Source: an uncultured Phycisphaeraceae bacterium (GTDB taxonomy: Bacteria > Planctomycetota > Phycisphaerae > WQYP01). Taken from it: a DNA stretch of 64,000 bases. The position numbers were made by a program, and so were the translations under genes. The stretch is taken from NCBI GenBank assembly GCA_964610975.1, contig CAZSYN010000007.1:26150-90149 (forward strand). Reading direction: 5' to 3'. Positions within the stretch are counted from its first letter, which is position 1. Each line of letters opens with the position of its first letter. Shown piece by piece: positions 15,857 to 46,418 of this stretch. The notes beneath the pieces were generated by a model. It was not told the DNA's origin. It saw only the letters and a program-made list of their open reading frames with translations, and searched no databases.

Positions 15857-15875
15857 AGTATGCAGGAGTTTGAAA

Positions 15876-16685: not shown

Positions 16686-16687
16686 CC

Positions 16688-30204: not shown

Positions 30205-31041
30205 ATGATGAAACTCAGTGAGCGCATCAAGCTTCTCCACGGCCCATACCGTTCGCCCCGCGTTCGTCGCGGCGACGTAATGTTTTGCGAAATACGCGGT
30301 TCCGTCCGGGTCACCAGCTTTACCAACGGTCCCATTCCTTGGCCACGTGCCTTGATTCTTGGCCACGGCCGCAGAGGGAAACCCGCCATGGTGATCTGCG
30401 GAGATCTGCTGCAGGCCATACGCACGGAATCCAATCTGGCCGTTCAGTATTGGTGGGGAGTTAAGGAATGCTGCGTGACGCGCTGGCGGAAAACTCTGGG
30501 CGTAGCAGAGTTCAATGAAGGATCCAAACGGTTGTGCGTTGCCAAAATGGAGGATATCAAGCCACCAGACTGGCGCGAGCGAATCGCGGCCAGAAGCCAT
30601 AAGCTGGAGTCTCATATCAAAGCATTAGCGACCCTGCGTGCCAATGGACGGCACAGGGGCAACCTGCGTCAGTGGAAGCCCGACGAAATCACACTGCTGG
30701 GGACCATGCCTGATCCTGCTCTGGCTATGATGTTGGGTTGCTCGGTTTACCTGATCGCCAAAAAACGTCAGGAGTTAGGCATTGCATCCTATCGCGGTTG
30801 GAAAGAGCGCAGAGGAGTCTATCGCGCCATTTCACGGACCAAATTGATTGCTCGCCGCTATGAATTGGGCCTTACCCGCGCCGAAGTGGCGCGCCGGATG
30901 GGCTGCAGCGGTACGCGTATCATGTATTTTGAAAATATCAGCCAGAGGGTCAGACCCGAAACGCTTACGCGGCTCGCACATGCGCTGGAATGTCCGCCCA
31001 GCAGGCTGGAAGAAGTCAAAAATAGCAGTGTTGATCGCTAA
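30205..31041 (+). CDS. HTH-domain regulator (C-terminal XRE-like HTH), probably prophage-borne
   Basis: 'LGLTRAEVARRMGCSGTRIMYFEN'. The GC content is phage-like. Confidence 0.4.
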   Translation: MMKLSERIKLLHGPYRSPRVRRGDVMFCEIRGSVRVTSFTNGPIPWPRALILGHGRRGKPAMVICGDLLQAIRTESNLAVQYWWGVKECCVTRWRKTLGVAEFNEGSKRLCVAKMEDIKPPDWRERIAARSHKLESHIKALATLRANGRHRGNLRQWKPDEITLLGTMPDPALAMMLGCSVYLIAKKRQELGIASYRGWKERRGVYRAISRTKLIARRYELGLTRAEVARRMGCSGTRIMYFENISQRVRPETLTRLAHALECPPSRLEEVKNSSVDR

Positions 31042-32461: not shown

Positions 32462-33139
32462 TCACCAAAAGCGTGGATAATCCCACGCGTAGGTTGTGGC
32501 GGATGTCATCTGCAAAACCTGCCCGCGCGCGGTACCGGCGGCCACGCCGGAGGCCCGGCCGAGCGCAATCAGTGCCCACTGAACACCCGTGCCACCTTGA
32601 CGCCACAAAATGGCGGACGATCCCGCGGTGCCGGCTCCCAGATAGGCAACCTGGCCATCGACAATTTCTACATACGGATAATCATTGGTAGTGTCCGGAA
32701 CGGTGATCTGGACCGGGCAGGCGCCGGCAGCATACGCCATGCCAATAGCTCCGGCTTTCAGCGGTTCTAAATTGATGATGTACCGGCCGATATGCGTCTT
32801 GGTGCGCGGTATGACGCCGGATACCGCCACCTTGTTTTTGAAGGAATCCAGATTGGCATCCGGCGTGATAATCGGGCCATTGACGCCCAGCACGCAGAAG
32901 CGATTGAGATCACTTCCCGTATCGTTGCGTACCAGAATGATGCCGCTGGAACGCTGGGCAGCCTGGGGCGTCGATGAGAGATTCCGCTGGCGGGATTGAT
33001 AATCGAGGGCCGTATCAATGAACGCATTGTACGTGGCGGCAGGGATGCGCAGCTTGTCGCCGGACTTCACTTTTTTAAATGAATCGCTCATGGCAATCTC
33101 TTTGTTCCAAATAAAATGATTCACCACTGAGAAGAACAA
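32462..33139 (-). CDS. Tail / baseplate protein (hypothetical)
   Basis: Assigned by position in the tail module. Confidence 0.4.
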   Translation of the reverse strand: MFFSVVNHFIWNKEIAMSDSFKKVKSGDKLRIPAATYNAFIDTALDYQSRQRNLSSTPQAAQRSSGIILVRNDTGSDLNRFCVLGVNGPIITPDANLDSFKNKVAVSGVIPRTKTHIGRYIINLEPLKAGAIGMAYAAGACPVQITVPDTTNDYPYVEIVDGQVAYLGAGTAGSSAILWRQGGTGVQWALIALGRASGVAAGTARGQVLQMTSATTYAWDYPRFW

Positions 33140-33149
33140 AACAAAGAAT

Positions 33150-33295
33150 CATTCACCACAGAGATTACAGAGCACACAGAGATTAAAAACAAAAAACATT
33201 TTTATTCTTCTCTGTCTCCTTCCTCTGTGTTCTCTGTGCGCTCTGTGGTTAATCTTTTTTATTTTCTCAGCGCCTCCGTGTCTCCGTGGTGAATG
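33150..33295. promoter_or_regulatory. Nested imperfect palindrome built from CACAGAG / CTCTGTG heptamers
   Basis: Three CACAGAG units at 33156-33180 oppose three CTCTGTG units at 33225-33248 around an A/T loop. An outer repeat cattcaccacagag has its reverse complement at 33281-33295. The structure lies between two tail genes. Confidence 0.45.
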
Positions 33296-33297
33296 TG

Positions 33298-34098
33298 TTA
33301 GTTGATAGCCAGTCCTGCAAAATCCGCCAGGTCATAAACCTTTTCGATGTACACCGCCACCGGCTTTTTGATCAGCGTCTTGGATGATGTATCCTCGGCA
33401 TCCTGGTAGCGCACCCACATGTATTCCCAGCCTTTTTTGTTGATGCCCGTGATACTGCCGACGGTCAGATTGGTGACATTGAGCGATCCGGCGAACTTGA
33501 AGGTGATCTCCCAATCATCATCAGCCGATTTGCCGCGCCTCGAACCCGAGGCGCCCAGGAACAGACATTCACCGGCCTGAAAGCCGCGGAACACGGTACT
33601 ATTCGCCTTGCCGGTGAGCACAAACAGCTGGCGCTTGTAGGCGTCCGTCACCACGGAGGCCGACAGGTAATGCGTCTCGGAGAACTGGTAGACCGGGATC
33701 GTAATATCCACGCCTTCGACACTGTCATGCGTGACACCCACGGCGCCGCCCATATCCGGCGCACTGCTGGGGTAGCGATTCACGGTGCCCAGGCTCTGGG
33801 TGATATGCTGTGTCCCGCCGCCGGTATCAAAAGAGAAGGATGATTCACCGGTTTCCGGCTTCTGGTTGTCAGGTGTGACGTAGCGAACCGTGCCATCCCA
33901 CAGAGAGGGGCCGACCGGCTCAATCCGCAGCGTCTGGCGGATCAGACCGTTGTAATCAGTGGGTGCAGTTGCCGCCAGTGACTGCTTGGCCAGCAGATCG
34001 TCGTCCGTACCGGAGACGACATATTGCAACTCCACCTGCGAACTGTCGGCGTCGGTGCTGTCCCGGCTGATGAGTTTTTCAACAACGGTGATAGGCAT
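33298..34098 (-). CDS. Tail protein downstream of the tape measure (distal-tail-like, hypothetical)
   Basis: Assigned by position in the tail module. Confidence 0.4.
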   Translation of the reverse strand: MPITVVEKLISRDSTDADSSQVELQYVVSGTDDDLLAKQSLAATAPTDYNGLIRQTLRIEPVGPSLWDGTVRYVTPDNQKPETGESSFSFDTGGGTQHITQSLGTVNRYPSSAPDMGGAVGVTHDSVEGVDITIPVYQFSETHYLSASVVTDAYKRQLFVLTGKANSTVFRGFQAGECLFLGASGSRRGKSADDDWEITFKFAGSLNVTNLTVGSITGINKKGWEYMWVRYQDAEDTSSKTLIKKPVAVYIEKVYDLADFAGLAIN

Positions 34099-34103
34099 TG
34101 CGA

Positions 34104-34195
34104 TAGGCTGTTAGACTGTAGACTATTAGACGGTTAGGAAGAAGGGTGCCGTGTATGTGTGCCTAATAGCCTAACAGTCTGTAGTCTAACAGTCT
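34104..34195. repeat. IVS-like palindromic element, copy 1
   Basis: Arms taggctgttagactgtagactattagacggttagg and cctaatagcctaacagtctgtagtctaacagtctc. It fills the gap between two genes. Confidence 0.7.
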
Positions 34196-34210
34196 CTTCT
34201 GCCCCTCCTT

Positions 34211-36202
34211 TCAGTCAAACTCCATCTCGTCATCCTGCTCGGCCATATCGACGAGTTTCTTGGTATGCTTGGCCGTGTCTTCGGAGGCTTTGGCAATACG
34301 ATCGGCCATGTTCCCACCAGCCATCCCACGGGCCTCAAAAGCATTAAAGGAACCGACGACGCCGATGGTCTTCTGGGCAATCGTTGGCCCGAGTCCCTCC
34401 AGGTAATCCGGCATGGAGGGCGGCTCCTGTAAACGATCCGGTCCCTGGGCGTTCTTGAGTTGGCGTTTCTTCTTGGCTTCGGCGATGGACTTCTGCCATT
34501 CTTCGCGGGTCTTGTTTAGCTCATCCTGCGATTCCTGCATCTTTTTGGCGTACTCATCGTCCAGTTCTTTCTCTTTATCCTGGGATTCCTGGCCGATCTG
34601 GGTGAGCGCCGCTTCGTGGGTTTGGGTCTCATCAGCGCGTTCCTGCCGACGTTGCTGTTCGCGCGCCTGCAGGGCGGATTGTTTCTGCTTATCGATCTCG
34701 GCATTGGTGGCAGCCAAGTCCTCATCGGCCATCTTCTTGGCCGCATCCACATCTAGGCTTGAATCAAACAATCCCTGCAGATCCAGCAATCGCTTGGCCG
34801 TCCAGTTGATGGCGGTATTCCAGGCCTTCTGGAATCCGGCTGTAAAGCTGGTCCAGACTTTGGATAGGAATGCGGTCGTCTCAATCCAGGCGACTTCAAA
34901 GCCGTGCCAGACGATCTCGCAGGCCGCCAGTGCGCCATAAAACGCGTCATAGGCCATCTTGATAAAGAAGTTTCGGAACGTCAGCCAGACTGATTCGAGT
35001 ACCTGCACTCCCTTGATCCAGGCAATCTTCAAAGTGAGCCACAGAATCTGTGCCGCCAAGGCGATATCGCCGGCCGCCAGAGCATCGGAGATGCCTGCAA
35101 ATGCCTGCGAGGCAAATTCTGATAGCTCCCCAAACCGCTGCCCCAGCCAGTCCAGCGCCTTGCCACCCAGACCGGAGGCGTAAACCAGATACGCTCCCAG
35201 CGCCACCACGGCCGCCGTGACCAGGCCAATCGGAGTCAATAACCAGGCAATCACCGATCCTACCGCACCCAATACCGTACCGACCCCGGTGACAATACTG
35301 GCCAGCACGCCCAATACACCACCGATGAACACGATGGCCTTGCCTAATAGCATGAGCGCCGTGCCGGCGGCCGAAACCACCAGGGCAATTTTGAACACGC
35401 TGACCACCAGATCCTTGTTCTGCTTGATCCAGGTGGTTCCTTTGACCACGATGTCAATGAGAACATTGGCCCACTGCGTCAGCAGCGGTGCAATGGAAGA
35501 ACCGAGCGTATTGGCGAGCTTTTTGAGCACTTTCCACAGGGTAGAGAGGGTTTCTTCCAGTTCAGCGCCGATCTGGACGCCAGCGGCGGAGGCCGTAAGC
35601 CCCAGCCGCCGGGCCTGCTCCTGCATGGCCTCAATACCGGCCGCGCCTTGGGAGAGCATCGGGAGAAGAGACGTACCGTTGCGGCCGAAGATCGCCAGCG
35701 CCAATGCCGCGCGTATCGCTGGGCTTTGAATGCTGGCAAGTTTGTCGGCAATCAATTTGAACTGCTGGTCGGGCGACAGGCCGCGCAGGTCATCCACCGT
35801 CAACCCCAATTGCGCCAGTGCATCGGTGGCAGCTTTCGATCCCATCGCGGCGGCGGCAATGGTCTTTTGCATCTTGCGGATACCCAGTTCCAGCGTGTCG
35901 ATGTCGGAGCCGGAGATCTGAGCGGCATAGCCGAGTTCTGAAAGTGCCTCCACGGAGATGCCTGTCCGCTGGCTCATGCTGAGTAACTCTTTGGAGCCGG
36001 AAGCGGATGCCTTGGCAAAGGCAATCAGCGGCGCGGTAATGACTGACCCGGCAGCGGCCAGCTTTTTACCCCAGCCGCTGATGGCATCGCCGAAGGCCTT
36101 GAGCTTCTTGTTGGCGCTCTGCAGGCCGCGCACGAGTTTGGAATCGTTGACAAACAACTCCACATAGGCGGCCCCGGCGCGTATGGAACGGGCATCGGCC
36201 AT
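34211..36202 (-). CDS. Tail tape-measure protein
   Basis: 663 aa, Ala/Gly-rich, with coiled coil and TM segments. The N-terminus is typical of TP901-family tape-measure proteins. No SD is present; element copy 2 abuts the ATG. Confidence 0.8.
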   Translation of the reverse strand: MADARSIRAGAAYVELFVNDSKLVRGLQSANKKLKAFGDAISGWGKKLAAAGSVITAPLIAFAKASASGSKELLSMSQRTGISVEALSELGYAAQISGSDIDTLELGIRKMQKTIAAAAMGSKAATDALAQLGLTVDDLRGLSPDQQFKLIADKLASIQSPAIRAALALAIFGRNGTSLLPMLSQGAAGIEAMQEQARRLGLTASAAGVQIGAELEETLSTLWKVLKKLANTLGSSIAPLLTQWANVLIDIVVKGTTWIKQNKDLVVSVFKIALVVSAAGTALMLLGKAIVFIGGVLGVLASIVTGVGTVLGAVGSVIAWLLTPIGLVTAAVVALGAYLVYASGLGGKALDWLGQRFGELSEFASQAFAGISDALAAGDIALAAQILWLTLKIAWIKGVQVLESVWLTFRNFFIKMAYDAFYGALAACEIVWHGFEVAWIETTAFLSKVWTSFTAGFQKAWNTAINWTAKRLLDLQGLFDSSLDVDAAKKMADEDLAATNAEIDKQKQSALQAREQQRRQERADETQTHEAALTQIGQESQDKEKELDDEYAKKMQESQDELNKTREEWQKSIAEAKKKRQLKNAQGPDRLQEPPSMPDYLEGLGPTIAQKTIGVVGSFNAFEARGMAGGNMADRIAKASEDTAKHTKKLVDMAEQDDEMEFD

Positions 36203-36206
36203 GGGG

Positions 36207-36330
36207 ATTAGGCTATTGGGAAAGGCATTTAGGCTACAGGCTGTTAGACTATTAGGTCAGGCAATGTCATACACTCCTCTTTTTCCTAACAGCCTAATAG
36301 TCTGCAGTCTAATAGTCTTTCTCAATAGCC
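36207..36330. repeat. IVS-like palindromic element, copy 2
   Basis: Arms ...aggctacaggctgttagactattaggtcagg and cctaacagcctaatagtctgcagtctaatagtc. Confidence 0.7.
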
Positions 36331-36339
36331 TCCTTTCTT

Positions 36340-37113
36340 TCAAGCGGTTTGTCCGGTTAACTCACGAATGTCCTCCACCGGCGAGGTCTTGATCGCCAGC
36401 CAGAACGACCCGCGCACGAGACTTTCAATCAGCACCCATAAGCCGACCGTCAGAATGACCCCGCCGGCCACCCACGGCAGCCAGTGCTGAATCTGGCCGA
36501 CGATCATGCAGGCAACCACCACAGCCAGACCACCGGCGCCGCCGGCAATGGAAATTCGGAAGTCGTGCATCAGGACGCCGACCGCCACGGCAATGCCGAT
36601 CGCGACAATCGCGAGCCATGAGATGGTGCGGAACATCGACTCCCACTTGCTGTTGGCGGCGGCGAGCTTTTTCTCCCAGGCGGTGTTGTCGTCGGCCCGG
36701 CCTTTTTTCTCTGTTTCCAGTGCGGCTGCTGTCTGCTGCATTTCCTTCTTGCCGGCTTGCACTTCGGATTTAAGGGTATCGATGTCCTTGCGGACATCGG
36801 CGAGCGCATTGCCCTGCGCCAGCAGTATCTGGGCGTTTGCAATAATGCGCGACCAGAAGGGATCCAGTGTGGGACGTACGGATTCCGGCGTGGCATCATG
36901 ACCAGCGCGCGCGGCAGTGGCGATTTCGGCTGCCGAACCGCTCACCTGCGTGGCCGCCGACGAGACCTTCTGGCCAATGTCATCAGCATGGCTATCGGCA
37001 TTGGACCAGGAGGATTCGGGCTGGGTTTGCGAGACGCAGCCATAAAAGGCGCCGATGAGCACTATTAATAAGGATAGGAATAACGTCAGTTTGAGAACAT
37101 CACGGTTCATCAA
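36340..37113 (-). CDS. Membrane protein with a coiled coil (N-terminal signal anchor, C-terminal TM helices), possibly a moron
   Basis: 'MMNRDVLKLTLFLSLLIVLIGAFYGC...' followed by multiple TM helices. It is inserted between the chaperones and the tape measure. Confidence 0.45.
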   Translation of the reverse strand: MMNRDVLKLTLFLSLLIVLIGAFYGCVSQTQPESSWSNADSHADDIGQKVSSAATQVSGSAAEIATAARAGHDATPESVRPTLDPFWSRIIANAQILLAQGNALADVRKDIDTLKSEVQAGKKEMQQTAAALETEKKGRADDNTAWEKKLAAANSKWESMFRTISWLAIVAIGIAVAVGVLMHDFRISIAGGAGGLAVVVACMIVGQIQHWLPWVAGGVILTVGLWVLIESLVRGSFWLAIKTSPVEDIRELTGQTA

Positions 37114-37376
37114 GGATTCTCCTGTTTGGGAGGGTTATCCACAAAAACGGATTTGAGCATTTGAATGTCACCCCGCAGCGGGCGCTCCTGCGTGTGCCCG
37201 CGGACCGGCATGGGATGAAAATCCACTGGCTTGAACGCCCGTATCCGTTTGGGGCGATTGACGTTGGCCAGCATTGCGAGAATCACAGACGTGTGATTCC
37301 ACATTTCGCGCTGGCGCGACTCGGTCATCTCCAGCAATTGCCTCAAGGTGAAGCAGCCGGGGTTGATTCCGAGCAT
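37110..37376 (-). CDS. Tail assembly chaperone, GT-like frameshift partner (putative)
   Basis: It overlaps the upstream chaperone ORF by 34 nt, directly ahead of the tape-measure region. Confidence 0.4.
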   Translation of the reverse strand: MLGINPGCFTLRQLLEMTESRQREMWNHTSVILAMLANVNRPKRIRAFKPVDFHPMPVRGHTQERPLRGDIQMLKSVFVDNPPKQENP

Positions 37377-37843
37377 TCCGGCGCACTGCCAGATGAGTTG
37401 CTCGGCGTGGATCGCTGCACGGCCAGCAGATTCTGAAGCTGGTTTTCCAGTTCCGGGCTTTCCAGACGAGTCTCCACCGCTGTCAGCGCGGCCGTCTCGA
37501 ATTTCCGCAGCCTGGCCAGAGCCTTGCTGAGTACTCTCCGCCGGCCCGCAGGGAAAAAATCGACCAGTTCCTCCAGCAGCGCGGTCGTTGCGCCATCAAT
37601 GGCGTCGCCCGCCATCGCCCGGCCAAAATCAACATCCGAGATCTTCTGGGCGTCGGCCTCCGGCTTGCAGATCACATAAATGATGTCGCAGAGCAGCAGC
37701 GGATCGGAGATGAGCTGCTCCAGCAGTTTGCCTTCGACCACTTCCAGCAGATTCACCTTGACGAGGTCGCGCACACGCCGGATCACATCCACATTGACCT
37801 GGATGGTCCACGTGCGGCCGGCGTTGTCGACAAAGGTTTTCAT
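37343..37843 (-). CDS. Tail assembly chaperone (gpG-like)
   Basis: Acidic 166-aa protein lying between the major tail protein and the tape measure. Confidence 0.45.
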   Translation of the reverse strand: MKTFVDNAGRTWTIQVNVDVIRRVRDLVKVNLLEVVEGKLLEQLISDPLLLCDIIYVICKPEADAQKISDVDFGRAMAGDAIDGATTALLEELVDFFPAGRRRVLSKALARLRKFETAALTAVETRLESPELENQLQNLLAVQRSTPSNSSGSAPECSESTPAASP

Positions 37844-37853
37844 GGGAACTCCA

Positions 37854-38282
37854 GACTGTTAGGCTGTAGACTGTTGGACTGTTAGGAGAACACAAACATG
37901 CGTGATCACACCAAACTCACCGCTTTCCACAAAGCTGATGCTCTGGCATTGGCGGTCTACCAAGTCACGCGGAGTTTTCCGCGCGAAGAACAGTTTGGGT
38001 TAACCAGCCAGATGCGCCGCGCGGCAGTTTCCGTCGCGTCGAACATCGTCGAAGGCTGCGCTCGGCGTACCGAAGCTGATTATCTACACTTTCTTGATAT
38101 GGCATTCGGATCACTCCGTGAACTAAGCTATCAGTTGTCTTTAGCTTTCCGACTGGGCTACCAAACCCAGGAGACTTACGATCCAGTCCGATTACAGGCC
38201 GAAGAATGTTCCAAGGTGCTTGCAGCGCTGATCCGCTCTTTCCGCAGTGCCTAACAGTCAAATAGTCTGTAGCCCAACAGTA
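37854..38282. repeat. IVS-like palindromic element, copy 3, carrying a cargo ORF
   Basis: The left arm gactgttaggctgtagactgttggactgttagg is identical to copy 4. The right arm is cctaacagtcaaatagtctgtagcccaacagt. The arms flank the plus-strand four-helix-bundle gene. Confidence 0.7.
37898..38254 (+). CDS. Four-helix-bundle protein (PF05635 / TIGR02436; 23S rRNA intervening-sequence protein family; family of the DGR accessory protein Avd)
   Basis: 'FHKADALALAVYQVTRSFPREEQFGLTSQMRRAAVSVASNIVEGCARRTEADYLHFLDMAFGSLRELSYQL' matches the family consensus. The RBS GGAG is formed by the end of the element arm. It runs opposite to all neighbouring genes. Confidence 0.8.
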   Translation: MRDHTKLTAFHKADALALAVYQVTRSFPREEQFGLTSQMRRAAVSVASNIVEGCARRTEADYLHFLDMAFGSLRELSYQLSLAFRLGYQTQETYDPVRLQAEECSKVLAALIRSFRSA

Positions 38283-38288
38283 TGGGGC

Positions 38289-38744
38289 CTACGGCCCCAC
38301 GGTCTTCCACACCGGCGGATTAACCGAATACGTCGGCTTGGCCGTCACCTTCACACTGATGGCATCTTCCAGCGGTTCATCCCGGCTGAAGTCCGTGATC
38401 ATGCAGTCGGCCCACAAGCCTTGGTTGCCATTGGAGCCGGCGCCGGTGATCGGGCCATCCATCACGGCCAGGCCGATGATCGAATTATTAAAATACGCAT
38501 CCTTGATGGCTGTAAAGCCGGCGTCGGCCGTGTCCCACACCATCTCAAACTCAATGGTTCCTTCCTTGAGCGTGCCGGCGGTGGCCTTCCAGCCATTGTT
38601 GGCACGCGTGGTGACATCCGCTTCACCTTTCTGCAAGGTCAGCGTGACATTTTTGACGTTGGTCAGCTCGGTCCAGGTCGGCGTACCGCCGATGCCTGCG
38701 GCGCAGAAGTACAATTTTGCATCTAAGCCAAACTTTACACCCAT
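38289..38744 (-). CDS. Major tail (tail tube) protein
   Basis: The 151-aa size, composition and position match TP901-1 / lambda-V-like tube proteins. Confidence 0.6.
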   Translation of the reverse strand: MGVKFGLDAKLYFCAAGIGGTPTWTELTNVKNVTLTLQKGEADVTTRANNGWKATAGTLKEGTIEFEMVWDTADAGFTAIKDAYFNNSIIGLAVMDGPITGAGSNGNQGLWADCMITDFSRDEPLEDAISVKVTAKPTYSVNPPVWKTVGP

Positions 38745-38757
38745 AAAAACTCCTTGG

Positions 38758-38895
38758 ATAGACTGTTAGGCTGTAGACTGTTGGACTGTTAGGAGTAATT
38801 AAGACTATTAGACTACAGACGGTTAGGCGGTTAGGAAAAAAACCAAAGACGTCGTTGCCCGACCTAACTGCCTAACAGTCTGTAGCCCAACTGCC
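38758..38895. repeat. IVS-like palindromic element, copy 4
   Basis: Same 33-nt left arm as copy 3, additional units, and right arm ctaactgcctaacagtctgtagcccaactgcc. Confidence 0.7.
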
Positions 38896-39288
38896 TTACC
38901 TCACTGATCCGGCCCACATGGCAGGCAGACGGTCTTTTACTTGTTCCAGTGCCGGTCCCATGAACGGCCTCCGGTCGTAACGCTCGCGTTTGTACTTGCC
39001 ACCGAACTCATGCGCTGCGCCGGAAGTCCCGGCCACCTGACGATCCGGCCCGATCACCACGGACTGCTTATCTTTCACCACTGCGTATTTGATCGCGTTA
39101 CGCATCCGCCCTTTGCGTGTGTTAGGCGGCGTACCAGAAGGAGATTTCTTGGGCGACTTTTTGATCGAATGCCGCGCGATTAAACGTACGGCAGCGCCCG
39201 CGTGGCCGAGATTACGGATGTTGGCCTTTTTGGCAGCCCACCGAATCTTGCTGTTATCCGTCTTGATCTTGGCTTTGGCCTGAATCAT
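38896..39288 (-). CDS. Tail completion / virion morphogenesis protein (HK97 gp10-like, putative)
   Basis: Basic 130-aa protein upstream of the major tail gene. Confidence 0.4.
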   Translation of the reverse strand: MIQAKAKIKTDNSKIRWAAKKANIRNLGHAGAAVRLIARHSIKKSPKKSPSGTPPNTRKGRMRNAIKYAVVKDKQSVVIGPDRQVAGTSGAAHEFGGKYKRERYDRRPFMGPALEQVKDRLPAMWAGSVR

Positions 39289-39294
39289 GGTTAT

Positions 39295-39437
39295 GTGAGA
39301 CTGTAGGCTGTTAGGCTATTAGGCTGTTAGGTCAGACAATGACGCCTTGGACTCTTTTCCTAACAGCCTAACAGTCTGTAGTCTAATAGTCTTAATTCCT
39401 CCCAAAAGTCAAACAGCCTGTAGCCTAATAGTCTTCC
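39295..39437. repeat. IVS-like palindromic element, copy 5
   Basis: Arms gagactgtaggctgttaggctattaggctgttaggtcag and cctaacagcctaacagtctgtagtctaatagtc, plus an extra half-arm. Confidence 0.7.
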
Positions 39438-39889
39438 TACCGTGCCACTCTGTACGTGACCGTCAGCACGCTGGTAAAGACCTGCTTCTGCTCCAAATGC
39501 TCGGGCGAATAAATCGGAACATTTTCGGTTTTCACCCAGATCGCAGAACCTTCACAGCCATCCTTGCCGAGTACCAACCGCCTGAGACGCAGGTAATCGG
39601 CGATCTGCTCTGCCAAGGCCATCAGGGGATCCAGTTCTGATGTACTGATTGAGCTGATTTTCTTCTGAACCGCCACATCCACTGACACATCATGCTGATT
39701 GATATTGCGGCCCAAACTTGCAATCTCAATCTTTTTGGGCACCACTGTCACTCTTAAAGTTTTGAGCTGCGCCAGATCATATTCTGGTTTGTACTGACGC
39801 TCCGCCGTAAACCCCTGTGCAAATGTCCCGGCCTGCGCGGTATTGAGTACATTAACAATCGCATTGGCAACCGATACAACCATGCTCAT
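39437..39889 (-). CDS. Head-tail joining / tail terminator-like protein (hypothetical)
   Basis: Assigned by position in the head-tail module. Confidence 0.35.
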   Translation of the reverse strand: MSMVVSVANAIVNVLNTAQAGTFAQGFTAERQYKPEYDLAQLKTLRVTVVPKKIEIASLGRNINQHDVSVDVAVQKKISSISTSELDPLMALAEQIADYLRLRRLVLGKDGCEGSAIWVKTENVPIYSPEHLEQKQVFTSVLTVTYRVAR

Positions 39890-40164
39890 GACGATTCACC
39901 ACTTCTCTGCGGCCGGCGTGGCCGCTTGGGTTCCAGATTCAGACGAGAAATTTCAGCATCAATCTCTTCTTTGGTCCCGATCAACATCGTGTTGCTGGCC
40001 GGCGTACCGACCCGGCCTTCACCAGGTGCAAGCAATTCAATAACCTGCTTGCCATCATGAACCAGCACATATTTGTCCGGATAAACATCCGACTGCTTGA
40101 TCTCCACTGTGGAGGAAGCGATTTCCTGCATGTTTGGAATCCTTAATTGGTGGTGACGGTCCAA
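39886..40164 (-). CDS. Hypothetical small structural-module protein
   Basis: ORF with overlapping start/stop coupling to its neighbours. Confidence 0.35.
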   Translation of the reverse strand: MDRHHQLRIPNMQEIASSTVEIKQSDVYPDKYVLVHDGKQVIELLAPGEGRVGTPASNTMLIGTKEEIDAEISRLNLEPKRPRRPQRSGESS

Positions 40165-40715
40165 CCCCGGCTGATAAGCGTGTTTTTCAGTGCCACTCCG
40201 TTTGGATTGGATGGCGCAGCATTGGCGCCACTGCTCATATCCAAATACCCATTGGTCATGCCGCTGGCCACCATGTCGGTAAGTACCTGGTCAATCATGG
40301 CCTGCGGCAATGCACATCCCATCAGATAGAGATAGTGCATATTCGTACATCCCTGAAGATTGATAAAGGTCAAACTGGTGCAGAAATAGACATCCAGTTC
40401 GGTAATGTTCGTATTGCCGTGGGCATCCACTTCCAGCAGACTTTTGTTATTACCGGCATAGCAGCCATTGAGTTTGGGCAAACGCCAAATTTCCAGTTTT
40501 GTAAGCTGGCAACTGTATACATCCAGCGAAGCAAGATTTTTCAGGTCGTTCCACGGTAAGGTTGTGAGTAGCTGGTTTTCACAAATCAGTTCAGTCAGGT
40601 TCGGCATGTTGATACTATCGATTCGCTCAACAAACCCGGACCAGGGCAATACCAGCATGGGCCACTGTTCCAGTGGCGGATAGGTAATCAGAGGCTCAGA
40701 CTTCCATGCCGGCAT
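40143..40715 (-). CDS. Leucine-rich-repeat (LRR) protein encoded inside the head-tail module
   Basis: The LRR units 'LTELICENQLLTTLPWNDLKNLASLDVYSCQLTKLEI...LLEVDAHGNTNITELDVYFCTSLTFINLQGCTNMHYLYLMGC' are present. Its start overlaps the stop of the upstream gene. Confidence 0.6.
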   Translation of the reverse strand: MPAWKSEPLITYPPLEQWPMLVLPWSGFVERIDSINMPNLTELICENQLLTTLPWNDLKNLASLDVYSCQLTKLEIWRLPKLNGCYAGNNKSLLEVDAHGNTNITELDVYFCTSLTFINLQGCTNMHYLYLMGCALPQAMIDQVLTDMVASGMTNGYLDMSSGANAAPSNPNGVALKNTLISRGWTVTTN

Positions 40716-41047
40716 CAGCGAATCTCCACAAACAAGTCTGTAAAATTCACACCGGCTACCAGGTTCCGAGCAACGATACGTGCGCCAACGGCAATACCGC
40801 CGGGAATGACGATCTCCCGCCAGTAGTTGGGCGGGATCAAAAACGACTTCTCCTGGCCGGCGGCATCACCGATGGAGACCAGGGCGCCGCCGGAACCCAC
40901 GCGAATAAAGGCCAGCCGGCTCTCGTGGGTGACACTGCCTGAACTCGCGGTGGTGTAAGTATCACCACCGGTTGACCAGTAAAGCAGATCCGGCTTGCCG
41001 GCGCCCTCCAGAACAGGTCCGCCGACATCCACATGCATAAGACCCAT
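40715..41047 (-). CDS. Hypothetical head-tail module protein
   Basis: Start refined to the ATG at 41047 with a GGAGG RBS. Confidence 0.4.
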   Translation of the reverse strand: MGLMHVDVGGPVLEGAGKPDLLYWSTGGDTYTTASSGSVTHESRLAFIRVGSGGALVSIGDAAGQEKSFLIPPNYWREIVIPGGIAVGARIVARNLVAGVNFTDLFVEIR

Positions 41048-41051
41048 GACA

Positions 41052-41291
41052 TCAGCCTCCGACGATGATGAGTTTCCAAAGAGCCGACACTGCCAGCGAT
41101 ACCACGGCGCCGGCAATAACCCAAAGCACGCGCGAACGCGTGCGTTCAGAGGCTTCCAGCCGATCCAGCCGCGCATAAATACCCGGCTTGCCGTTGCCAC
41201 GGATGGCCTCATCGAGCCGATCAAGCTTGACGTGGATCTCGGCTAGTTCCTGCCGATGCAGGCGGTCCAGTTCTTCTTCAGCGTGTGTCAT
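41052..41291 (-). CDS. Small coiled-coil protein with a C-terminal TM helix
   Basis: '...RLDRLEASERTRSRVLWVIAGAVVSLAVSALWKLIIVGG'. Confidence 0.4.
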   Translation of the reverse strand: MTHAEEELDRLHRQELAEIHVKLDRLDEAIRGNGKPGIYARLDRLEASERTRSRVLWVIAGAVVSLAVSALWKLIIVGG

Positions 41292-41665
41292 GATGCGTCA
41301 ACCTGCTTCGTGTGTATCCGGTACGTTCGGCGATAAGGATCGCTGTAACGCCAGCAGGGCTCATCACCCGGCGCCATGACTTCGTACACATAAGAATGGT
41401 CGCCATCAGTCTCGGTGATGCGATCTCCGCGCTGGGGTGTTACCGCCTGGCCACCCAGCACCAAATCACTGGCCGTAATCAAAAAGTCTCGGCTCTCCAC
41501 GCGCAGTGCGGCGCCGGTGCCGTCATCTACTTCAAAGACGGTCTGTCCGATGGTGGCAGCGATTTGCAGTGTCTGCTCACCACGCTGATATACAACCATG
41601 CGCGACATGAATTTTGCGCGCTGATTCTGAAGCCAGTCAGATGCTTGTTGAAGAAGATCAGGCAT
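41288..41665 (-). CDS. Head-tail connector / adaptor protein (gp6-like, putative)
   Basis: 125-aa protein placed after the capsid and decoration genes. Confidence 0.4.
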   Translation of the reverse strand: MPDLLQQASDWLQNQRAKFMSRMVVYQRGEQTLQIAATIGQTVFEVDDGTGAALRVESRDFLITASDLVLGGQAVTPQRGDRITETDGDHSYVYEVMAPGDEPCWRYSDPYRRTYRIHTKQVDAS

Positions 41666-41820
41666 AGGCTGTTGAAACAGACTATTAGACTACAGGCGTT
41701 TTGGCTGTTAGGAGAGAAATCAATCGCACAAATGTATGACCCAACAGTCAAATGGCCTGTGGTCTAACAGCCTTTCCTTCTGACCAAACAGTCAAACAGT
41801 CTGTAGCCTAACAGTCTCCT
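41664..41820. repeat. IVS-like palindromic element, copy 6
   Basis: Arms ataggctgttgaaacagactattagactacaggcgttttggctgttagg and ccaacagtcaaatggcctgtggtctaacagcc, plus ccaaacagtcaaacagtctgtagcctaacagtctcc. Confidence 0.7.
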
Positions 41821-41822
41821 CC

Positions 41823-42152
41823 TCACTGGCTCAGCCGCGCACGAACCTTTTCATCATCATCCGAGGCCGCGCGAACCGTTTTGCCGATTCCCTTATTGCC
41901 TGCGGAAGTCGTGGTCGCCTGCTGCGCGGTGGCATTCCAATAAAGAATTGCCCCAACCGCGATGGCCGTACCAGCGCCCTTGGCCTTGGGAAAATCAAAA
42001 ATACCATCCACGACCAGACCGCCGGTGGTATTGGCCGGAATCGGCCGAGCGGCCACACCCACCAGTTCCCCCTGTACCACTACCGATCCAGCAGCAACAT
42101 CCGCAGCGGGGGTGTAATCAATCGCCGATCCATCACTGACAAAAGTCGCCAT
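41823..42152 (-). CDS. Head decoration / DUF2190-like protein (putative)
   Basis: Gly/Ala-rich 109-aa protein directly after the capsid gene. Confidence 0.4.
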   Translation of the reverse strand: MATFVSDGSAIDYTPAADVAAGSVVVQGELVGVAARPIPANTTGGLVVDGIFDFPKAKGAGTAIAVGAILYWNATAQQATTTSAGNKGIGKTVRAASDDDEKVRARLSQ

Positions 42153-42208
42153 GTGCGAGTTTCCTTTTTTTAATTCATCATTCAGACTTCAGCATTCAGA
42201 ATTCGCTC

Positions 42209-44314
42209 TTACGCTTCTCCTTTGTTCTTCACGCCCGCGCGCGGATCCTGCATCGCCACGCCAAAATCGTGATAACCGCGCACCGTGATGCCCAGCACAT
42301 TGGGATTGGCTTCAATCGTTTCAATGGTGGGCGACTCATTACCATTCAGGAACGCGACTTCAATTAGCGGCAGGTCGTTGGCATCCGCCAGCAGGTACCA
42401 GGCCTTCTGGCTGGAGCCAGCGTACCGGGCATTGCCCAGGTATCGACTGACTTCCACCCGGTAGGCATTCTGGTGCGGGTTGGCGATCGGCATTTTGGTA
42501 TTGCTGGTCGTATCGCGGATTTCCGTCGACTTATAAAGCTGCGTCGCCATGGCCGAGAGTGACGTCGGCACCAGCAATACTTTCGGATCGACGCTGATCG
42601 GCTTGCCATCCGAATCGACCTGATCATTAAACGCCTGCACTGCATTACTCAGGGAATCAATTCCCAGCACCGTACCGGCGCCGGAGAGATAATTCTTATT
42701 GGCGGCGGCGAAGATGGCAGCATTGTTCAGGAAGATCGTCCAGAACACATCATTGATCTTCAGACCCGACCCACGGCCGAGCTTGCGCGGCACGGTGGTG
42801 ATGGCGCCCAGATCATCATTGATGATGTCGCGCCGTTCAATCGTCAGCATCAGGCCGTAAGTGTCGGCCTTGTTGGTGTAGATTTCATTACCGAGGGTGC
42901 CGTGCTTAAGCTCACCGCCGGGCGCAATCAATTCATACTGATCGGTACCGATCAAGCGGTAGCTCGTGACGGTCTTAAAGTCCGTCACACTGCGGACCGC
43001 ACAGATATTCCGCCAGGTCCGTTCAACCGAGAAGAATCCGTCGAGCAGGAACTTATTACCGACATTCGAGAGAATCGGCGCGATATCAATCGTGGCATAT
43101 CCCGCCTCAATCTGCGCTTTGCTCGGGAAGGCCATCGCCATGATGGTATGCGGATCACTGCGGAAGGTGCGGCCGATGTAACCATTGACCATCGCCGCTT
43201 CCACCATCAGGTCCTGCAGGCTGATTCCGTTCCGGAATCGTTTGCTGGCGGCATCCAGATCCTGCTCGCTGCAGTGGTTTCCCGGTTTGGATAAACCTGC
43301 CGAGAGCAGACAGGCCGCCTCCAGCATGGCCGATGTCGTCGGTCCAGGCGAAGCAAAGCTAAAGCCCATCGGCGCACCCATGACATTGCCACCCGCCACG
43401 GGCGCCTTGGGCCGACTGGCGCGCAGAACTTCCAGTTCCGTCTTGGTCTGATCCCAGCCATCACGAATCGCCTGCGCTTCAATATCTGTACACTTGCCAT
43501 TGCAGATTCGGCGAATGCCGGCGATGCGGTTGGTCTCCGCAAGCGCTTCGGCGCGAATCTGATCCATACTGCGAACATCCGCTGCATTGACCGCAGATAC
43601 GGCGGCCGCCTGAACCGGCGGAGCGGCAACAGCGGTGCCAGCAGAACCAGTACCTGTCGACGTGCTGGCGGATGTTGAATTGGTAGTGGTGGAAGTGTTT
43701 GTGGTAATACCGTCCATCGTGGCGGTCTCCTTTTCATGTACTGTATCGATCTGCGACGCGGCCACCTGCGCAGAGGTGTTGCCGTCGGCGCCCAGGTCTA
43801 CAAAACTGATCTCGCCCAGTGTTGCCTTGCGGACAACATTCACCGGGCCCTCAAACGTCCGGCCGTTGACAATGGCCTTCTGGCCATCTTTGACGAATTC
43901 AAACTCTTCCACTGACGCGCCAATACTGGCCTGCCAGGGGAAGCCATTCTTGGAACTGACGACAATCTCCCGCGCCGCCGGCGTATCCCGTGAGACCACG
44001 CCAGCCGCGATGAGTTGCCCGGCCTCTACGGAGATGGCATCAGTATGACCGACACCCGCACCCGCGCTGGCATCATGGCCAAAGCGGATCGGCCTGTTTT
44101 GACTCGGGATCGCCAGACCTGCCAGATCCACAATCACCGGGAAGCGCCAGCCGGCGATCCTCATCGGCCCGCCGGTGTAGGCCACCATGCGAAAGCGCGG
44201 CAAGGCTGGCGCAGCACCGGTTTCGCCCGCTGGCATGCCTGCCTCAATTTGAAAGCTCGCCAGCAGCGCCAGCGGACCGGCCTGATTGTCATTCTTCTTG
44301 GGCGACTGACTCAT
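42209..44314 (-). CDS. Prohead protease – major capsid protein fusion (HK97-fold)
   Basis: Start at 44314 (MSQSPKK) with an AGGAGA RBS. The N-terminal ~200 aa is protease-like (HD... and S.G segments). A Thr/Ser-rich linker follows, then a capsid-like C-terminal ~450 aa. Confidence 0.6.
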   Translation of the reverse strand: MSQSPKKNDNQAGPLALLASFQIEAGMPAGETGAAPALPRFRMVAYTGGPMRIAGWRFPVIVDLAGLAIPSQNRPIRFGHDASAGAGVGHTDAISVEAGQLIAAGVVSRDTPAAREIVVSSKNGFPWQASIGASVEEFEFVKDGQKAIVNGRTFEGPVNVVRKATLGEISFVDLGADGNTSAQVAASQIDTVHEKETATMDGITTNTSTTTNSTSASTSTGTGSAGTAVAAPPVQAAAVSAVNAADVRSMDQIRAEALAETNRIAGIRRICNGKCTDIEAQAIRDGWDQTKTELEVLRASRPKAPVAGGNVMGAPMGFSFASPGPTTSAMLEAACLLSAGLSKPGNHCSEQDLDAASKRFRNGISLQDLMVEAAMVNGYIGRTFRSDPHTIMAMAFPSKAQIEAGYATIDIAPILSNVGNKFLLDGFFSVERTWRNICAVRSVTDFKTVTSYRLIGTDQYELIAPGGELKHGTLGNEIYTNKADTYGLMLTIERRDIINDDLGAITTVPRKLGRGSGLKINDVFWTIFLNNAAIFAAANKNYLSGAGTVLGIDSLSNAVQAFNDQVDSDGKPISVDPKVLLVPTSLSAMATQLYKSTEIRDTTSNTKMPIANPHQNAYRVEVSRYLGNARYAGSSQKAWYLLADANDLPLIEVAFLNGNESPTIETIEANPNVLGITVRGYHDFGVAMQDPRAGVKNKGEA

Positions 44315-45851
44315 CGTCATTCTCCTGATCCACAGGTGTACTTGCTGGGGTTGAGGTCGTCGGCGTCGCAACCAACCCGAGTTCCTTCATCAACGCCATT
44401 TCCTTGGCTCTCTGGCGCAGCTCAGCTTCCCAGTCGCGTCCCTGGCGCGCATATTCATAGGCAAGGGTGGTGGTATTGCTGGCCAGGCGCGTGGCCTGAG
44501 CATTGGCTTCCTTGGCCGGGTCTACATGTTCCTGGCCATCCCAAAACCACTGGTGGAGAGGCAAGGCTGTTTGGCTGCAGGCTGTTTGACTGTTAGCTTC
44601 GCCTAACAGCCCAACAGTCAAACGGCCTAACAGTCCTTCCACTAATCTGGCTTCGCTCAACCAAGCCCGCAAAATCGGATCGAGTACCACGCGACCCATA
44701 TGCGCCTGATCGACGCGGATCGATTTGTAATAGACCTGATGATCCAGACGTCCCGACGCGTAGTTGTAGCCCGATGAATTGCCCGCCGCGACATTAAACG
44801 GCATGTTCAGGCAGCGAGAGATTTCGTTGAGGATTTCCTTTTTGAATTCACCGTAAGTCGTCGTCGGCTGCTCGGCGGTGACCTGACCCAGTTTCCATCC
44901 ACCGGGCAAGACCGTTGCCATGCGCCGTTCCAACTCCACGATATCCATCGGTTCAACTGGATCGGCCTCGCCGTTGGCGGGCGCATCGGTATACAAAACC
45001 GCTGCAAAATCCGCAGCCGTCTCCGCTGCCGCAATCACCGCAAGCGTGTAACGCCGCAATTGGGCAAACAGTGGCAGCGCGGCCGTGATCTCTGGAATCC
45101 CCCGGCTCTGGCCGGGACGATCAGTACGGTAATAATGAATCATCGCACTGGCTGGGATCCGATCAAAGCCAGAAAGCCACGATCCGAAGAGTGAGTTATC
45201 ACCTGGATGCGCACGAAGCAAATGATATTCAACAGGATTCCCGTAGTTGTCATACACAATGCCATCAGTCAGGCTGTTAGGCTGTAGACTGTTAGACTGT
45301 TTGTGCCTAATAGCCAAACGGTCTAAAAAGCTAACAGCCTCCCACGGCGTGCTGATCTGGTCCGCTTCAAAGAGCTTCAGATCCAGCTTCACCGGCGAAT
45401 CAATCATGGGATTGGCTACCAGCATGCCAAAGACTTCACCCGATTCGGCGCGCGAAGCGCGCATGGTGCGGAGCTTTTCAGGGAGCCGAATTGCCTCCGC
45501 CCAGTGCATAAACTCCTGCTCGGCCACCCGGTTGGCTGCATCCTGCTCGGTGAGCATCTGCAAGCGCGGGCCGGTACCGACGACATCATTAGCGAGCGTG
45601 AGCACAATCCCACGGGCATACGAGTTGTTCGCTACCTCGTAGCGCGCACGAGCACGCAAGGTCTTGCGTACGGCCGCACTGTTGGCGGCGTTCGCCGAGA
45701 GATGATCGGCGGCGGCCCAGTGGCGACGGTTATCGTCATTGGTGGCCGCCGCATCATAGCGGCCGCCAATCCGCATGGGCACGTGCACAAAGCGCGTGAC
45801 CCGCTGCACCGATTGCGCCGGCAGAAGTTTTTTGAGTAGTCCCATCATCAC
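44289..45851 (-). CDS. Portal protein
   Basis: The 520-aa size, position after the terminase, and the '...RYEVANNSYARGIV...' N-terminus are typical of lambda/HK97-type portals. It contains two in-frame repeat-element insertions. Confidence 0.7.
   Translation of the reverse strand: MMMGLLKKLLPAQSVQRVTRFVHVPMRIGGRYDAAATNDDNRRHWAAADHLSANAANSAAVRKTLRARARYEVANNSYARGIVLTLANDVVGTGPRLQMLTEQDAANRVAEQEFMHWAEAIRLPEKLRTMRASRAESGEVFGMLVANPMIDSPVKLDLKLFEADQISTPWEAVSFLDRLAIRHKQSNSLQPNSLTDGIVYDNYGNPVEYHLLRAHPGDNSLFGSWLSGFDRIPASAMIHYYRTDRPGQSRGIPEITAALPLFAQLRRYTLAVIAAAETAADFAAVLYTDAPANGEADPVEPMDIVELERRMATVLPGGWKLGQVTAEQPTTTYGEFKKEILNEISRCLNMPFNVAAGNSSGYNYASGRLDHQVYYKSIRVDQAHMGRVVLDPILRAWLSEARLVEGLLGRLTVGLLGEANSQTACSQTALPLHQWFWDGQEHVDPAKEANAQATRLASNTTTLAYEYARQGRDWEAELRQRAKEMALMKELGLVATPTTSTPASTPVDQENDDESVAQEE
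44571..44650. repeat. IVS-like palindromic element, copy 7 (in frame within portal)
   Basis: gcaaggctgtttggctgcaggctgtttgactgttagc / ttcgcctaacagcccaacagtcaaacggcctaacagtcc, translated as 'LLGRLTVGLLGEANSQTACSQTA'. Confidence 0.65.
45261..45333. repeat. IVS-like palindromic element, copy 8 (in frame within portal)
   Basis: aggctgttaggctgtagactgttagactgtttg / gcctaatagccaaacggtctaaaaagctaacagcctcc, translated as 'EAVSFLDRLAIRHKQSNSLQPNSLTDG'. Confidence 0.65.
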
Positions 45852-46223: not shown

Positions 46224-46418
46224 TTATGCCCGTTCGCGCGTAGGGATGCGCCGGCCACAATAACGACACTCACGCAGACGCATGATGCAACCCGGCCGGG
46301 CACGCGTATACACAACATCCAGATGCCGGCAACCGCACTTGGGACATGCAAGACCACGCGGAACGGGTGCATGGTCCGTCCTTGCGGAATTTTCGTTGAT
46401 GGGTAATGGGTCTCTCAT
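46224..46418 (-). CDS. C4 zinc-ribbon protein (NrdR / Ogr-Delta-like finger), translationally coupled to terminase
   Basis: 64 aa. 'CPKCG...VVYTRARPGCIMRLRECRYCGRRIPTRE' carries two CxxC pairs ~22 residues apart. It has an ATGA overlap with the TerL stop and a GGAGG RBS. Confidence 0.55.
   Translation of the reverse strand: MRDPLPINENSARTDHAPVPRGLACPKCGCRHLDVVYTRARPGCIMRLRECRYCGRRIPTRERA

Follow-up and report, generated by a model that had tools for sequence, protein, structure and literature searches.

The Coxiella intervening sequence (IVS) lies in 23S rRNA, encodes the protein S23p, carries two or three tandem GACAGAT heptamers beside its open reading frame (ORF), and is excised at its stem by RNase III (PMC4990558). 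IVSs have long been suspected of mobility (PMC4990558). The short tandemly repeated repetitive (STRR) sequences of cyanobacteria are intergenic tandem 7-bp units that form hairpins and occur within operons, for example between hupS and hupL (PMC2670836). The origin, mobility and purpose of rRNA IVSs, and of the very abundant genes for four-helix-bundle (4HB) or S23p proteins, have been open questions since about 1990. Here I describe eight long palindromic elements, E1 to E8, in a 64-kb stretch of contig CAZSYN010000007.1 (hereafter the window), where they occupy the structural module of a prophage. One of them is a cassette with a 4HB gene. The eight palindromes are probably copies of a single dispersed, mobile family of hairpin-ended elements, IVS-like and STRR-like in make-up and behaving like miniature inverted-repeat transposable elements (MITEs), and not sites that evolved with the phage.

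Seven short hairpins and a four-helix-bundle gene cassette

All eight palindrome clusters were found where the original prediction, made from the letters of the window alone, had placed them. Their arms are arrays of three to six units of 7–8 nt (RRCTGTTAG, RCTGTAG or RCTATTAG) on both sides. RRCTGTTAG has 24 matches on the two strands of the window, against 0.90 ± 0.93 expected (0 of 100 shuffles reach 24), and all 24 fall within E1–E8; the units are therefore non-random, and a compositional artefact, which had been proposed as a way of refuting the family, was rejected. No further copy was returned by blastn when the elements were used as queries against the 64 kb. Seven copies are short (70–150 bp) and have no ORF. 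Every one of them folds better as RNA than its dinucleotide shuffles, on either strand (z = −3.4 to −8.6), which bears out the long stems that had been predicted. The copies are found in both orientations and are 70–83% identical, one exact 36-nt arm excepted, and non-repetitive loop or linker sequence is common to them, for example GGAG(T/G)AATTAAG and the loops of E2 and E5.

E3 (37853–38282, plus strand) is the full cassette; it lies between the tail-tube and chaperone genes, antisense to them. A left arm (37853–37886) is followed by the Shine–Dalgarno sequence TTAGGAG, an ORF (37898–38254, plus strand) and a right arm (38250–38282), and the two arms pair with each other around the ORF. The 118-aa product matches PF05635 ('23S rRNA-intervening sequence protein', E = 5.1e-35), TIGR02436 ('four helix bundle protein', 120.9 bits against a cutoff of 24) and the pentameric XCC0516 structure (PDB 2GSC, E = 5e-25). 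The original reading of this copy had missed the PF05635 gene, which ties the family to 23S rRNA IVSs, and the 20–30-bp spacer that it ascribed to every copy does not apply to E3, whose arms enclose the ORF. A second 118-aa 4HB protein (P0241), 95% identical with six residues different, is encoded outside the window on the same 335-kb source contig; ORF-bearing cassettes thus number at least two in this genome. The possibility that the product is the Avd protein of a diversity-generating retroelement was rejected, since it scores 34 bits with NF033474 against a cutoff of 80 and its neighbours are tail-tube and chaperone genes. A promoter scan gave no promoter-like signal for the 4HB ORF, the PADLOC defence-system models did not match its product, and tblastn of the protein against 50,697 phage records returned nothing at an E-value limit of 1e-8. 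Searching plasmids with E5 by blastn gave no match, and the exact arm motif had 0 matches in IMG/VR.

Of the short copies, E1 and E2 are ORF-less hairpins. E1 (34106–34194) has arms at 34106–34138 and 34162–34194, folds with z = −4.3 on the minus and −4.9 on the plus strand, and lies between the tape-measure gene and gene 33298–34098; E2 (36210–36331), with arms of 47 nt each and z = −7.7 and −8.6, lies between gene 36340–37113 and the tape-measure gene. The statement that each gap holds exactly one element proved too simple, because E4, E5 and E6 are composites of a hairpin and a solo arm. E4 (38760–38895), between gene 38896–39288 and the tail-tube gene, consists of a solo arm at 38760–38795 and a hairpin at 38803–38895, and E5 (39299–39433), between genes 39437–39889 and 38896–39288, of a hairpin at 39299–39391 and a solo arm at 39410–39433. 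These two, on either side of gene 38896–39288, are 83% identical over 122 nt in inverted orientation; E2 and E5 are 80% identical over 82 nt, loop included. The arm shared by the third and fourth copies is indeed identical, over 36 nt (37853–37888 and 38760–38795) instead of the 33 first given. E6 (41666–41816), between the cement gene and the gene for the head-tail joining protein (HTJ), has the GGAGGAG behind the cement stop codon on one side and the ATG on the other. The predicted placement just upstream of the next gene's ribosome-binding site holds for E3 and E4 only. It fails for E1, E2 and E6, where the sequence itself shows a GGAGG motif directly after the upstream stop codon, then the element, and 1–8 nt beyond it the ATG.

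The last two copies had also been assigned to intergenic gaps; both lie instead within the portal ORF (44289–45851), which continues uninterrupted and in frame through them. E7 (44564–44636) is a hairpin translated roughly as ...GLLGRLTVGLLGEANSQTACSQTALP..., and E8 (45271–45340) is a hairpin translated as ...WEAVSFLDRLAIRHKQSNSLQPNSL.... The closest portal (P0002, 89% identity in the alignment) lacks 12 residues at E7 and 18 at E8. The E7 segment measures 16–22 aa in 48 of 50 related portals (27 and 28 aa in the other two) against 31 aa here, and the E8 segment 14 aa in 42 of 69 against 30 aa here. At the portal site of E8, L105 carries an independent in-frame hairpin of CTGTAG/CTGAAG units. 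Judged from these alignments, E7 and E8 are insertions into two variable segments of the portal.

Two further statements of the original prediction agree with the analysis. The palindromes are not a CRISPR array, which was rejected because inverted arms, abutting units and distances of kilobases between copies do not fit one, and because none of the window ORFs compared with Pfam gave a cas match. Nor are they intrinsic terminators, a candidate rejected because a short GC-rich stem with a U-tract is lacking: scanning the window for terminator and promoter signals and U-tracts revealed nothing above chance at the elements, and the 12 terminator-like sites found (12.2 expected) include none that coincides with an element. 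No Rfam family was matched; permissive thresholds gave only sub-threshold models of plant microRNA precursors and small nucleolar RNAs.

The palindrome in the 33140–33297 gap, which had been set aside as foreign to the family, deserves separate mention. This palindrome, H (33156–33248), lies between genes 33298–34098 and 32462–33139 and is built of CACAGAG/CTCTGTG with a period of about 9 (z = −7.1 and −4.9). It is a separate sequence family, with no blastn similarity to E1–E8, yet it has the same architecture with another unit. H occupies the junction that holds a 4HB cassette in the related phages L403/404/406. CACAGAG-type hairpins also lie close to CTAACAG/CTACAG arrays in metagenome contigs L189 and L276, and one is present in L166.

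Empty junctions in related phages, dispersed copies and genomic setting

A portal-based search of viral contigs gave 80 syntenic loci with portal identities of 60–73%, onto which the window proteins were mapped and in which the orthologous junctions were measured. From the cement to the HTJ gene the relatives have a median of 13 nt (n = 61), against 157 nt in the window, where E6 lies; from gene 38896–39288 to the tail tube the median is 14 nt against 151 nt (E4), from the tail tube to the chaperone gene 38 nt (n = 34) against 445 nt (E3), and from the tape measure to the next gene 12 nt (−1 to 36 nt) against 112 nt (E1). Where the counterparts of genes 39437–39889 and 38896–39288 are adjacent, they are separated by −4 to 31 nt, against 148 nt in the window (E5). 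Placed side by side, these junctions show conserved coding ends flanking an empty site in the relatives: the E4 junction reads TAAGGAGatcgaccATG in them, and the L102 junction reads ...gtgaaaTAAGGAGatcgaccATG, the window counterpart being TAA, 151 nt and AAGGAGtttttATG. Since the orthologous junctions are so small, the elements are, on this comparison of sequences, insertions into otherwise tight junctions and not conserved sites. Conserved RNase III sites of the T7 type were rejected on the same grounds, the relatives' junction medians being 12–38 nt and analogous hairpins being present in few of them.

Most relatives are without such an element. Over 1.04 Mb of DNA from the related phages, a detector that combines tandem-repeat finding (TRF) with arm alignment, and that is only partially sensitive in that it misses E2 and E6, counted 14 pairs of inverted tandem arrays; here, 11 kb contain eight elements. 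Detection seeded with exact 6-mer tandems or along antidiagonals proved weaker, being too noisy or too strict, and the minimum free energy per nucleotide of intergenic gaps did not discriminate in the GC-rich relatives. L133 carries an antisense 4HB cassette with CTGTTGG arms at the very tube-to-chaperone junction that holds E3, and in addition three ORF-less hairpins, two of the CTGTTGG and one of the CTGGAG type. L157 has a nearly perfect (GGCTGTTG)5…(CCTAACAG)5 hairpin between cement and HTJ and a CTGGAG-type hairpin after the capsid gene. The gene for P0122, a 4HB protein 82% identical to that of E3, follows the homologue of gene 33298–34098, antisense to the structural genes of a related phage, and that for P0125 (75% identical) lies antisense between capsid and cement. 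The cassette is thus antisense in four of four independent phage placements (the window, L133, L403/404/406 and L407–409); the orientation is mixed at non-phage 4HB loci.

Three observations on the related phages stand apart. An identical 4HB cassette (that of P0122) with the same right flank has different left flanks in L403 (2380–2900), where the flank is a 288-aa tail-region gene, and in L405 (715–1215), where it is the cement gene, the break falling within the left arm; the conflict could reflect two insertion sites or an assembly chimera formed at the repeat. In L098 (6709–6795) a 14-nt gene-end segment, gtggtgaggtaagc, is tandemly triplicated at the junction of E5, and because of this triplication these junctions appear slippage-prone. 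L107 (2767–2997) and L113 (2831–3067) have a long, nearly perfect palindrome of ACTGTCGCG-type units upstream of the terminase region, which may be another unit family of the same architecture.

The association of a 4HB gene with inverted arrays extends well beyond phages. With the 4HB protein as query, species-representative genomes yielded 80 loci (61–73% identity), mostly in Planctomycetota and also in Hydrogenedentota, Acidobacteriota, Actinomycetota, Zixibacteria, Gammaproteobacteria, Lentisphaerota, Deinococcota, Bacteroidota and more; 78 were usable for a test of the flanks. At 51 of these 78 loci the 150-nt flanks of the ORF make up an inverted repeat that clearly exceeds shuffled controls. 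The arm units differ from locus to locus (CTGTAG, CTGGAG, CTTGAG, CTGTTAG, CTGAAG, CTTTAG) within a common CT..AG frame, and the most frequent 6-mers upstream and downstream of the ORF are exact reverse complements of each other at 32 of 77 loci (permutation mean 6.2, maximum 14). This match between the arms is covariation at the level of the whole unit. The identity of the 4HB proteins is 69.1% within a unit type and 65.5% between types (p < 0.0005); unit type tracks protein similarity, so that the gene travels with its arms. Heptamer arrays adjoin the 4HB genes of Nostoc and Calothrix plasmids. According to the original prediction, absence of the copies from homologous prophages, together with a lack of conserved structure and covariation, would speak against the family. 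The copies are indeed absent from most relatives' junctions; the short copies in the window do fold better than their shuffles, and covariation of whole units was found at the 4HB loci.

ORF-less copies are dispersed as well. The mixed arm motif CTGTTAG-R-CTGTAG-R-CTRTT is present in at least 120 metagenome contigs. Among the matches listed, a partner arm lies 30–120 nt off in about 55, which are hence ORF-less hairpins; four have a 4HB gene, the rest being solo or tandem arrays, and a homologue of the proteins of this phage is encoded on just one contig. The motif sites are intergenic in 114 of 120 cases, again among the matches listed, and their neighbours are chromosomal housekeeping genes such as those for thiolase, gyrase B, tRNA synthetase and ABC transporters. 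The ends of the metagenomic hairpins typically read AGGCTGT…ACAGCCT.

In the window, the phage structural module extends from 33 to 46 kb on the minus strand. The minus strand encodes the large terminase (46415–48715), a 520-aa portal of the lambda family (44289–45851), a capsid fusion protein (42209–44371), the cement protein (41823–42152), HTJ (41288–41665), the tail tube (38289–38744), two overlapping chaperone-like ORFs (37110–37843, the one next to E3 being 37343–37843) and the tape measure (34211–36202). Other late genes that flank the elements are 32462–33139 and, on the minus strand, 33298–34098, 36340–37113, 38896–39288 and 39437–39889. The 56-nt gap from capsid to cement is the sole structural-module gap without a palindrome; at 42172–42204 it contains a direct tandem heptamer, AATTCAG, in 4.7 copies, with no inverted partner seen in it. 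Replication genes (primase-polymerase, helicase, AAA_24) lie downstream of the module. An imperfect palindrome of about 95 nt at 52071–52166, GAGCGGTCAGTCACACGCGC…GCGTGACTGACCGCTC, spans the start of the primase-polymerase/AAA_25 gene (52107–54212, minus strand) and is unrelated to the main family. An HTH_31/XRE-type regulator gene (30205–31041, plus strand) is found on the opposite strand within the tail-gene region of the prophage.

The host-like part, at about 1–22 kb, encodes a DUF1559/N-methyl protein, a GntR regulator and two transposases and contains a group II intron remnant. The portal relatives are annotated as Phycisphaerae, Planctomycetaceae and Fontivita. Given the host-like flank, the phage genes and these annotations, a prophage within a Planctomycetota-like genome is a fair description of the region. 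The intron remnant is a D1–D4 match (RF02003, 104 bits, 6783–6924, minus strand) that adjoins short ORFs, and near it are the transposase genes, of the Mutator family (19080–20468) and the rve type (4512–5477); the host flank is rich in mobile DNA because the intron match and the two transposases lie close by. Two palindromes of about 165 nt (15685–15860 and 16685–16860), some 70% identical and mutually inverted, with ends TAGAAACTATCCCAAAAG…CTTTTGGGATAGTTTCT, bracket an ORF (15687–16685) with a weak CBM9 match and look like a different MITE-like family. A scan of the window found no rRNA.

Probable mobility of the elements and the competing explanations

Three roles had been proposed for the palindromes, namely RNase III processing sites, a self-propagating element of the MITE, REP or RPE kind, and an operator array. 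The second is the best supported of the three: the elements are absent from orthologous junctions, occur in both orientations, are twice in frame within a gene, and have an arm motif that is dispersed in at least 120 contigs. The ORF-bearing form is a cassette of about 430 bp in which inverted arrays of 7–8-nt units bracket a 4HB gene. In the scheme I consider probable, the other seven copies, which share its arms around a short spacer and are in some cases nested or composite, would be its miniature derivatives. Copies would persist where they are tolerated, the survivors being those between genes or in frame in permissive loops. In the late transcript, the arms would fold into a stem of 30–45 bp; at E1, E2 and E6 this stem would loop the insert out from between GGAGG and the start codon. 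RNase III probably accepts these stems as substrates, as experiments have shown it to do with the stems of rRNA IVSs of the same gene family. As neither a target-site duplication nor a transposase was found, the data suggest that the elements are mobilised in trans or recombine through their repetitive arms. Colonisation is unusually dense, with one cassette and seven miniatures in 11 kb.

Several observations weigh against this scheme. The element contains no transposase, and the 4HB protein has no known catalytic role. Comparison of the six window junctions with empty sites gave no consistent direct repeat (a possible AAGG at E4 is unrepeated elsewhere), and no target-site duplication was seen in 29 metagenomic hairpins with clear bounds. 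Eight copies lie in 11 kb of prophage and none in the window's 22 kb of host DNA, an odd distribution for a genome-wide repeat. The divergence of the copies, as far as their sequences tell, is no sign of very recent transposition. Apparent ORF remnants in the spacers of short copies are mostly explained by arm units; what is left is GTGCC|TAA(C/T)AG at the right junction of E1 and E8, which is weak. An RNase III cut between GGAGG and ATG at E1, E2 and E6 would part the ribosome-binding site from the start codon, although a stem that merely loops the insert out would, on this folding model, pose no such problem for translation. Finally, the arms show no strand asymmetry in G·U-compatible mismatches (78 against 69 in the cassettes, 21 against 13 in the window copies), and since neither strand has an excess, RNA-level selection on one strand is not demonstrated. 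With no wobble asymmetry, equal folding on both strands and copies in both orientations, symmetric DNA ends or strand-indifferent hairpins fit at least as well as a dedicated mRNA signal.

This last point bears on the alternative that survives best, unlikely as it is: that the hairpins are RNase III processing or mRNA-stabilising sites that cut the late polycistronic mRNA, analogous to the R-sites of T7 or the hupS-hupL hairpins. The stems of 30–45 bp all fold far better than shuffles in the mRNA sense, six elements are located exactly at gene junctions, and analogous hairpins occur at the same junctions in a few relatives (cement to HTJ and capsid to cement in L157, several in L133). The IVS stems of rRNA, with the same gene family, are cut by RNase III (PMC4990558), and STRR hairpins have been proposed to stabilise transcripts or couple translation (PMC2670836). 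RNase III cleavage as such would thus be plausible from the long stems and, by analogy, from the IVS precedent (PMC4990558); as conserved phage sites of the T7 kind the elements fit poorly. Most related phages have no hairpin at those junctions (14 pairs in 1.04 Mb against eight elements in 11 kb), the copies occur in both orientations and even within the portal coding sequence, no strand-specific wobble signature is seen, and the same elements are found between unrelated chromosomal genes.

Quite unlikely, too, is that the units are putative binding sites for the pentameric 4HB protein, serving as operators, nucleation sites or insulators, and that the cassette is a moron-like accessory gene which the prophage expresses in antisense direction to its late genes. 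In favour are the periodicity of the units, their conserved CT..AG frame, the correlation of unit type with the 4HB sequence and the antisense orientation of all four independent phage placements, against a mixed orientation in non-phage loci. Avd, a homologue of the 4HB protein, binds nucleic acid and reverse transcriptase; a moron is extra DNA between genes that are adjacent in relatives, a definition that the cassette fits. The correlation, however, is small (69.1% against 65.5%) and would follow from simple co-inheritance. ORF-less copies greatly outnumber 4HB genes, many hairpin contigs have no 4HB gene nearby, and the ORF has neither a promoter-like signal in the scan nor a match to a defence-system model.

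I regard as very unlikely a third possibility, that these are host repeats of the repetitive extragenic palindromic (REP) or bacterial interspersed mosaic element (BIME) type, moved in trans by a REP-associated tyrosine transposase (RAYT, of the Y1/HUH kind) acting on single-stranded hairpins, with the 4HB gene a passenger. The elements are palindromic and mostly intergenic, have no target-site duplication and are dispersed among housekeeping genes, and many units contain GTAG, a tetranucleotide that is conserved in Escherichia coli REPs. Many unit types lack GTAG, however (CTGGAG, CTTGAG, CTGAAG), the arms are tandem arrays of variable number and not one defined palindrome, and the unit type is inherited with the 4HB gene. 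No RAYT/Y1 match was obtained among the 30 window ORFs scanned against Pfam, a subset of the ORFs, the transposases found being of the Mutator family and the rve type. Replication slippage in place, by which each junction would have acquired its own STRR-like expansion with no mobility, can be dismissed as extremely improbable: unit number does vary between copies, heptamer number differs among Coxiella strains (PMC4990558) and L098 has its 14-nt triplication at one such junction, but slippage accounts neither for inverted arm pairs, nor for non-repetitive loop and linker sequence common to the copies (GGAG(T/G)AATTAAG, the E2/E5 loops), nor for the recurrence of the mixed unit order CTGTTAG-R-CTGTAG-R-CTRTT in at least 120 unrelated contigs.

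Relation to described elements

The original prediction held that nothing similar had been described. This was overstated in view of the heptamer hairpins of STRR sequences (PMC2670836) and the tandem heptamers at the Coxiella S23p ORF (PMC4990558). In the literature searched, no link was found between PF05635 genes, inverted tandem-unit arms, ORF-less derivatives, phage junctions and in-frame inserts; literature searches for the repeat strings gave nothing relevant, and the TAACTGA direct repeats of Beggiatoa were rejected as a match, being a different phenomenon. Two published observations fit the link made here: 23S_rRNA_IVP genes have been reported scattered in cas loci (PMC3936711), and strain-specific 4HB genes have their best matches in other phyla (PMC8700078).

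With its one cassette, seven miniatures, empty sites in dozens of relatives and two in-frame portal insertions, the window is a compact natural experiment. The finding of 4HB genes between co-varying inverted arrays, together with dispersed ORF-less hairpins, turns a vague annotation into a testable class of element. In practice, elements of this kind widen intergenic gaps and lengthen proteins by peptide segments. Software that looks for repeats or CRISPR arrays may be misled by them (compare the 23S_rRNA_IVP genes in cas loci, PMC3936711), and metagenome assemblies may become chimeric, to judge by the conflicting flanks of L403 and L405. An attractive though speculative extension is that PF05635 cassettes with tandem-unit arms and their ORF-less derivatives form one cross-phylum mobile class that unites IVSs, STRR hairpins and the phage insertions. 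The Avd-like pentamer might recognise its own units and call in enzymes of the host, be it a polymerase or reverse transcriptase, a nuclease or the recombination machinery, which would copy the element with no duplication of the target. One lineage might have become a specialist of structural operons in Planctomycetota phages, where it would always lie antisense.

Among phage features, the closest in placement are the morons and the ultra-small mycobacteriophage mobile elements (MPMEs). A moron comes with a promoter and a terminator of its own, and an MPME with inverted repeats of 11 bp and an ORF for a putative transposase. The elements described here share with both that they are extra DNA, with or without a small ORF, between genes adjacent in related phages; unlike in morons, the scan detected neither promoter nor terminator in them. 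The RNase III sites of T7 are junction hairpins too, and conserved features of the phage, whereas the elements here are absent from most relatives, are found in both orientations and occur in chromosomes as well.

Among dispersed repeats, REP and BIME sequences are intergenic imperfect palindromes with no target duplication, often with GTAG, and are associated with RAYT transposases. The present elements differ in the variable tandem-array arms and the association with 4HB, and no RAYT was found among the window ORFs scanned against Pfam. Rickettsia palindromic elements (RPEs) lie in frame in protein genes and add a peptide segment, as E7 and E8 do in the portal gene; sequence and host are unrelated, and only two of the eight copies here are in coding sequence. 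The Correia or NEMIS elements of Neisseria are MITEs that are co-transcribed with their neighbours and whose inverted repeats are cut by RNase III in the transcripts; they have defined 26-bp terminal repeats and a TA target duplication. Short, ORF-less and inverted at their ends, the elements here resemble them, and differ in having tandem arrays as ends and no duplication that could be found. More generally, like MITEs they are short, non-coding, multi-copy and inverted at the ends (seven copies of 70–150 bp here, about 55 among the metagenome matches listed). They have no target-site duplication, and what the ORF-bearing copy encodes between these same ends is a 4HB protein and not a recognisable transposase; they are therefore not classical MITEs.

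The nearest relatives remain those with which I began. STRR sequences share the heptamer arrays, which adjoin 4HB genes on Nostoc and Calothrix plasmids, and STRR3, CAACAGT, is complementary to the ACTGTTG unit present here; they belong to another phylum and context and, in the literature searched, are described without a PF05635 cassette, insertion or in-frame copies. Compared with the IVSs of Leptospira, Coxiella, Brucella and Xanthomonas relatives, the elements here have longer arms, of three to six units on both sides, and lie in a phage structural operon and a protein-coding gene instead of helix 25 or 45 of 23S rRNA; excision by RNase III would apply to them by analogy only. Because of the different location, the elements are not members of the rRNA-IVS class in the strict sense. 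In composition, E3 is nonetheless like an IVS, with a PF05635/TIGR02436 protein whose ORF lies within stem-forming inverted repeats, and the IVSs in turn have tandem heptamers of variable number by the ORF, together with ORF decay and ORF-less forms (PMC4990558).

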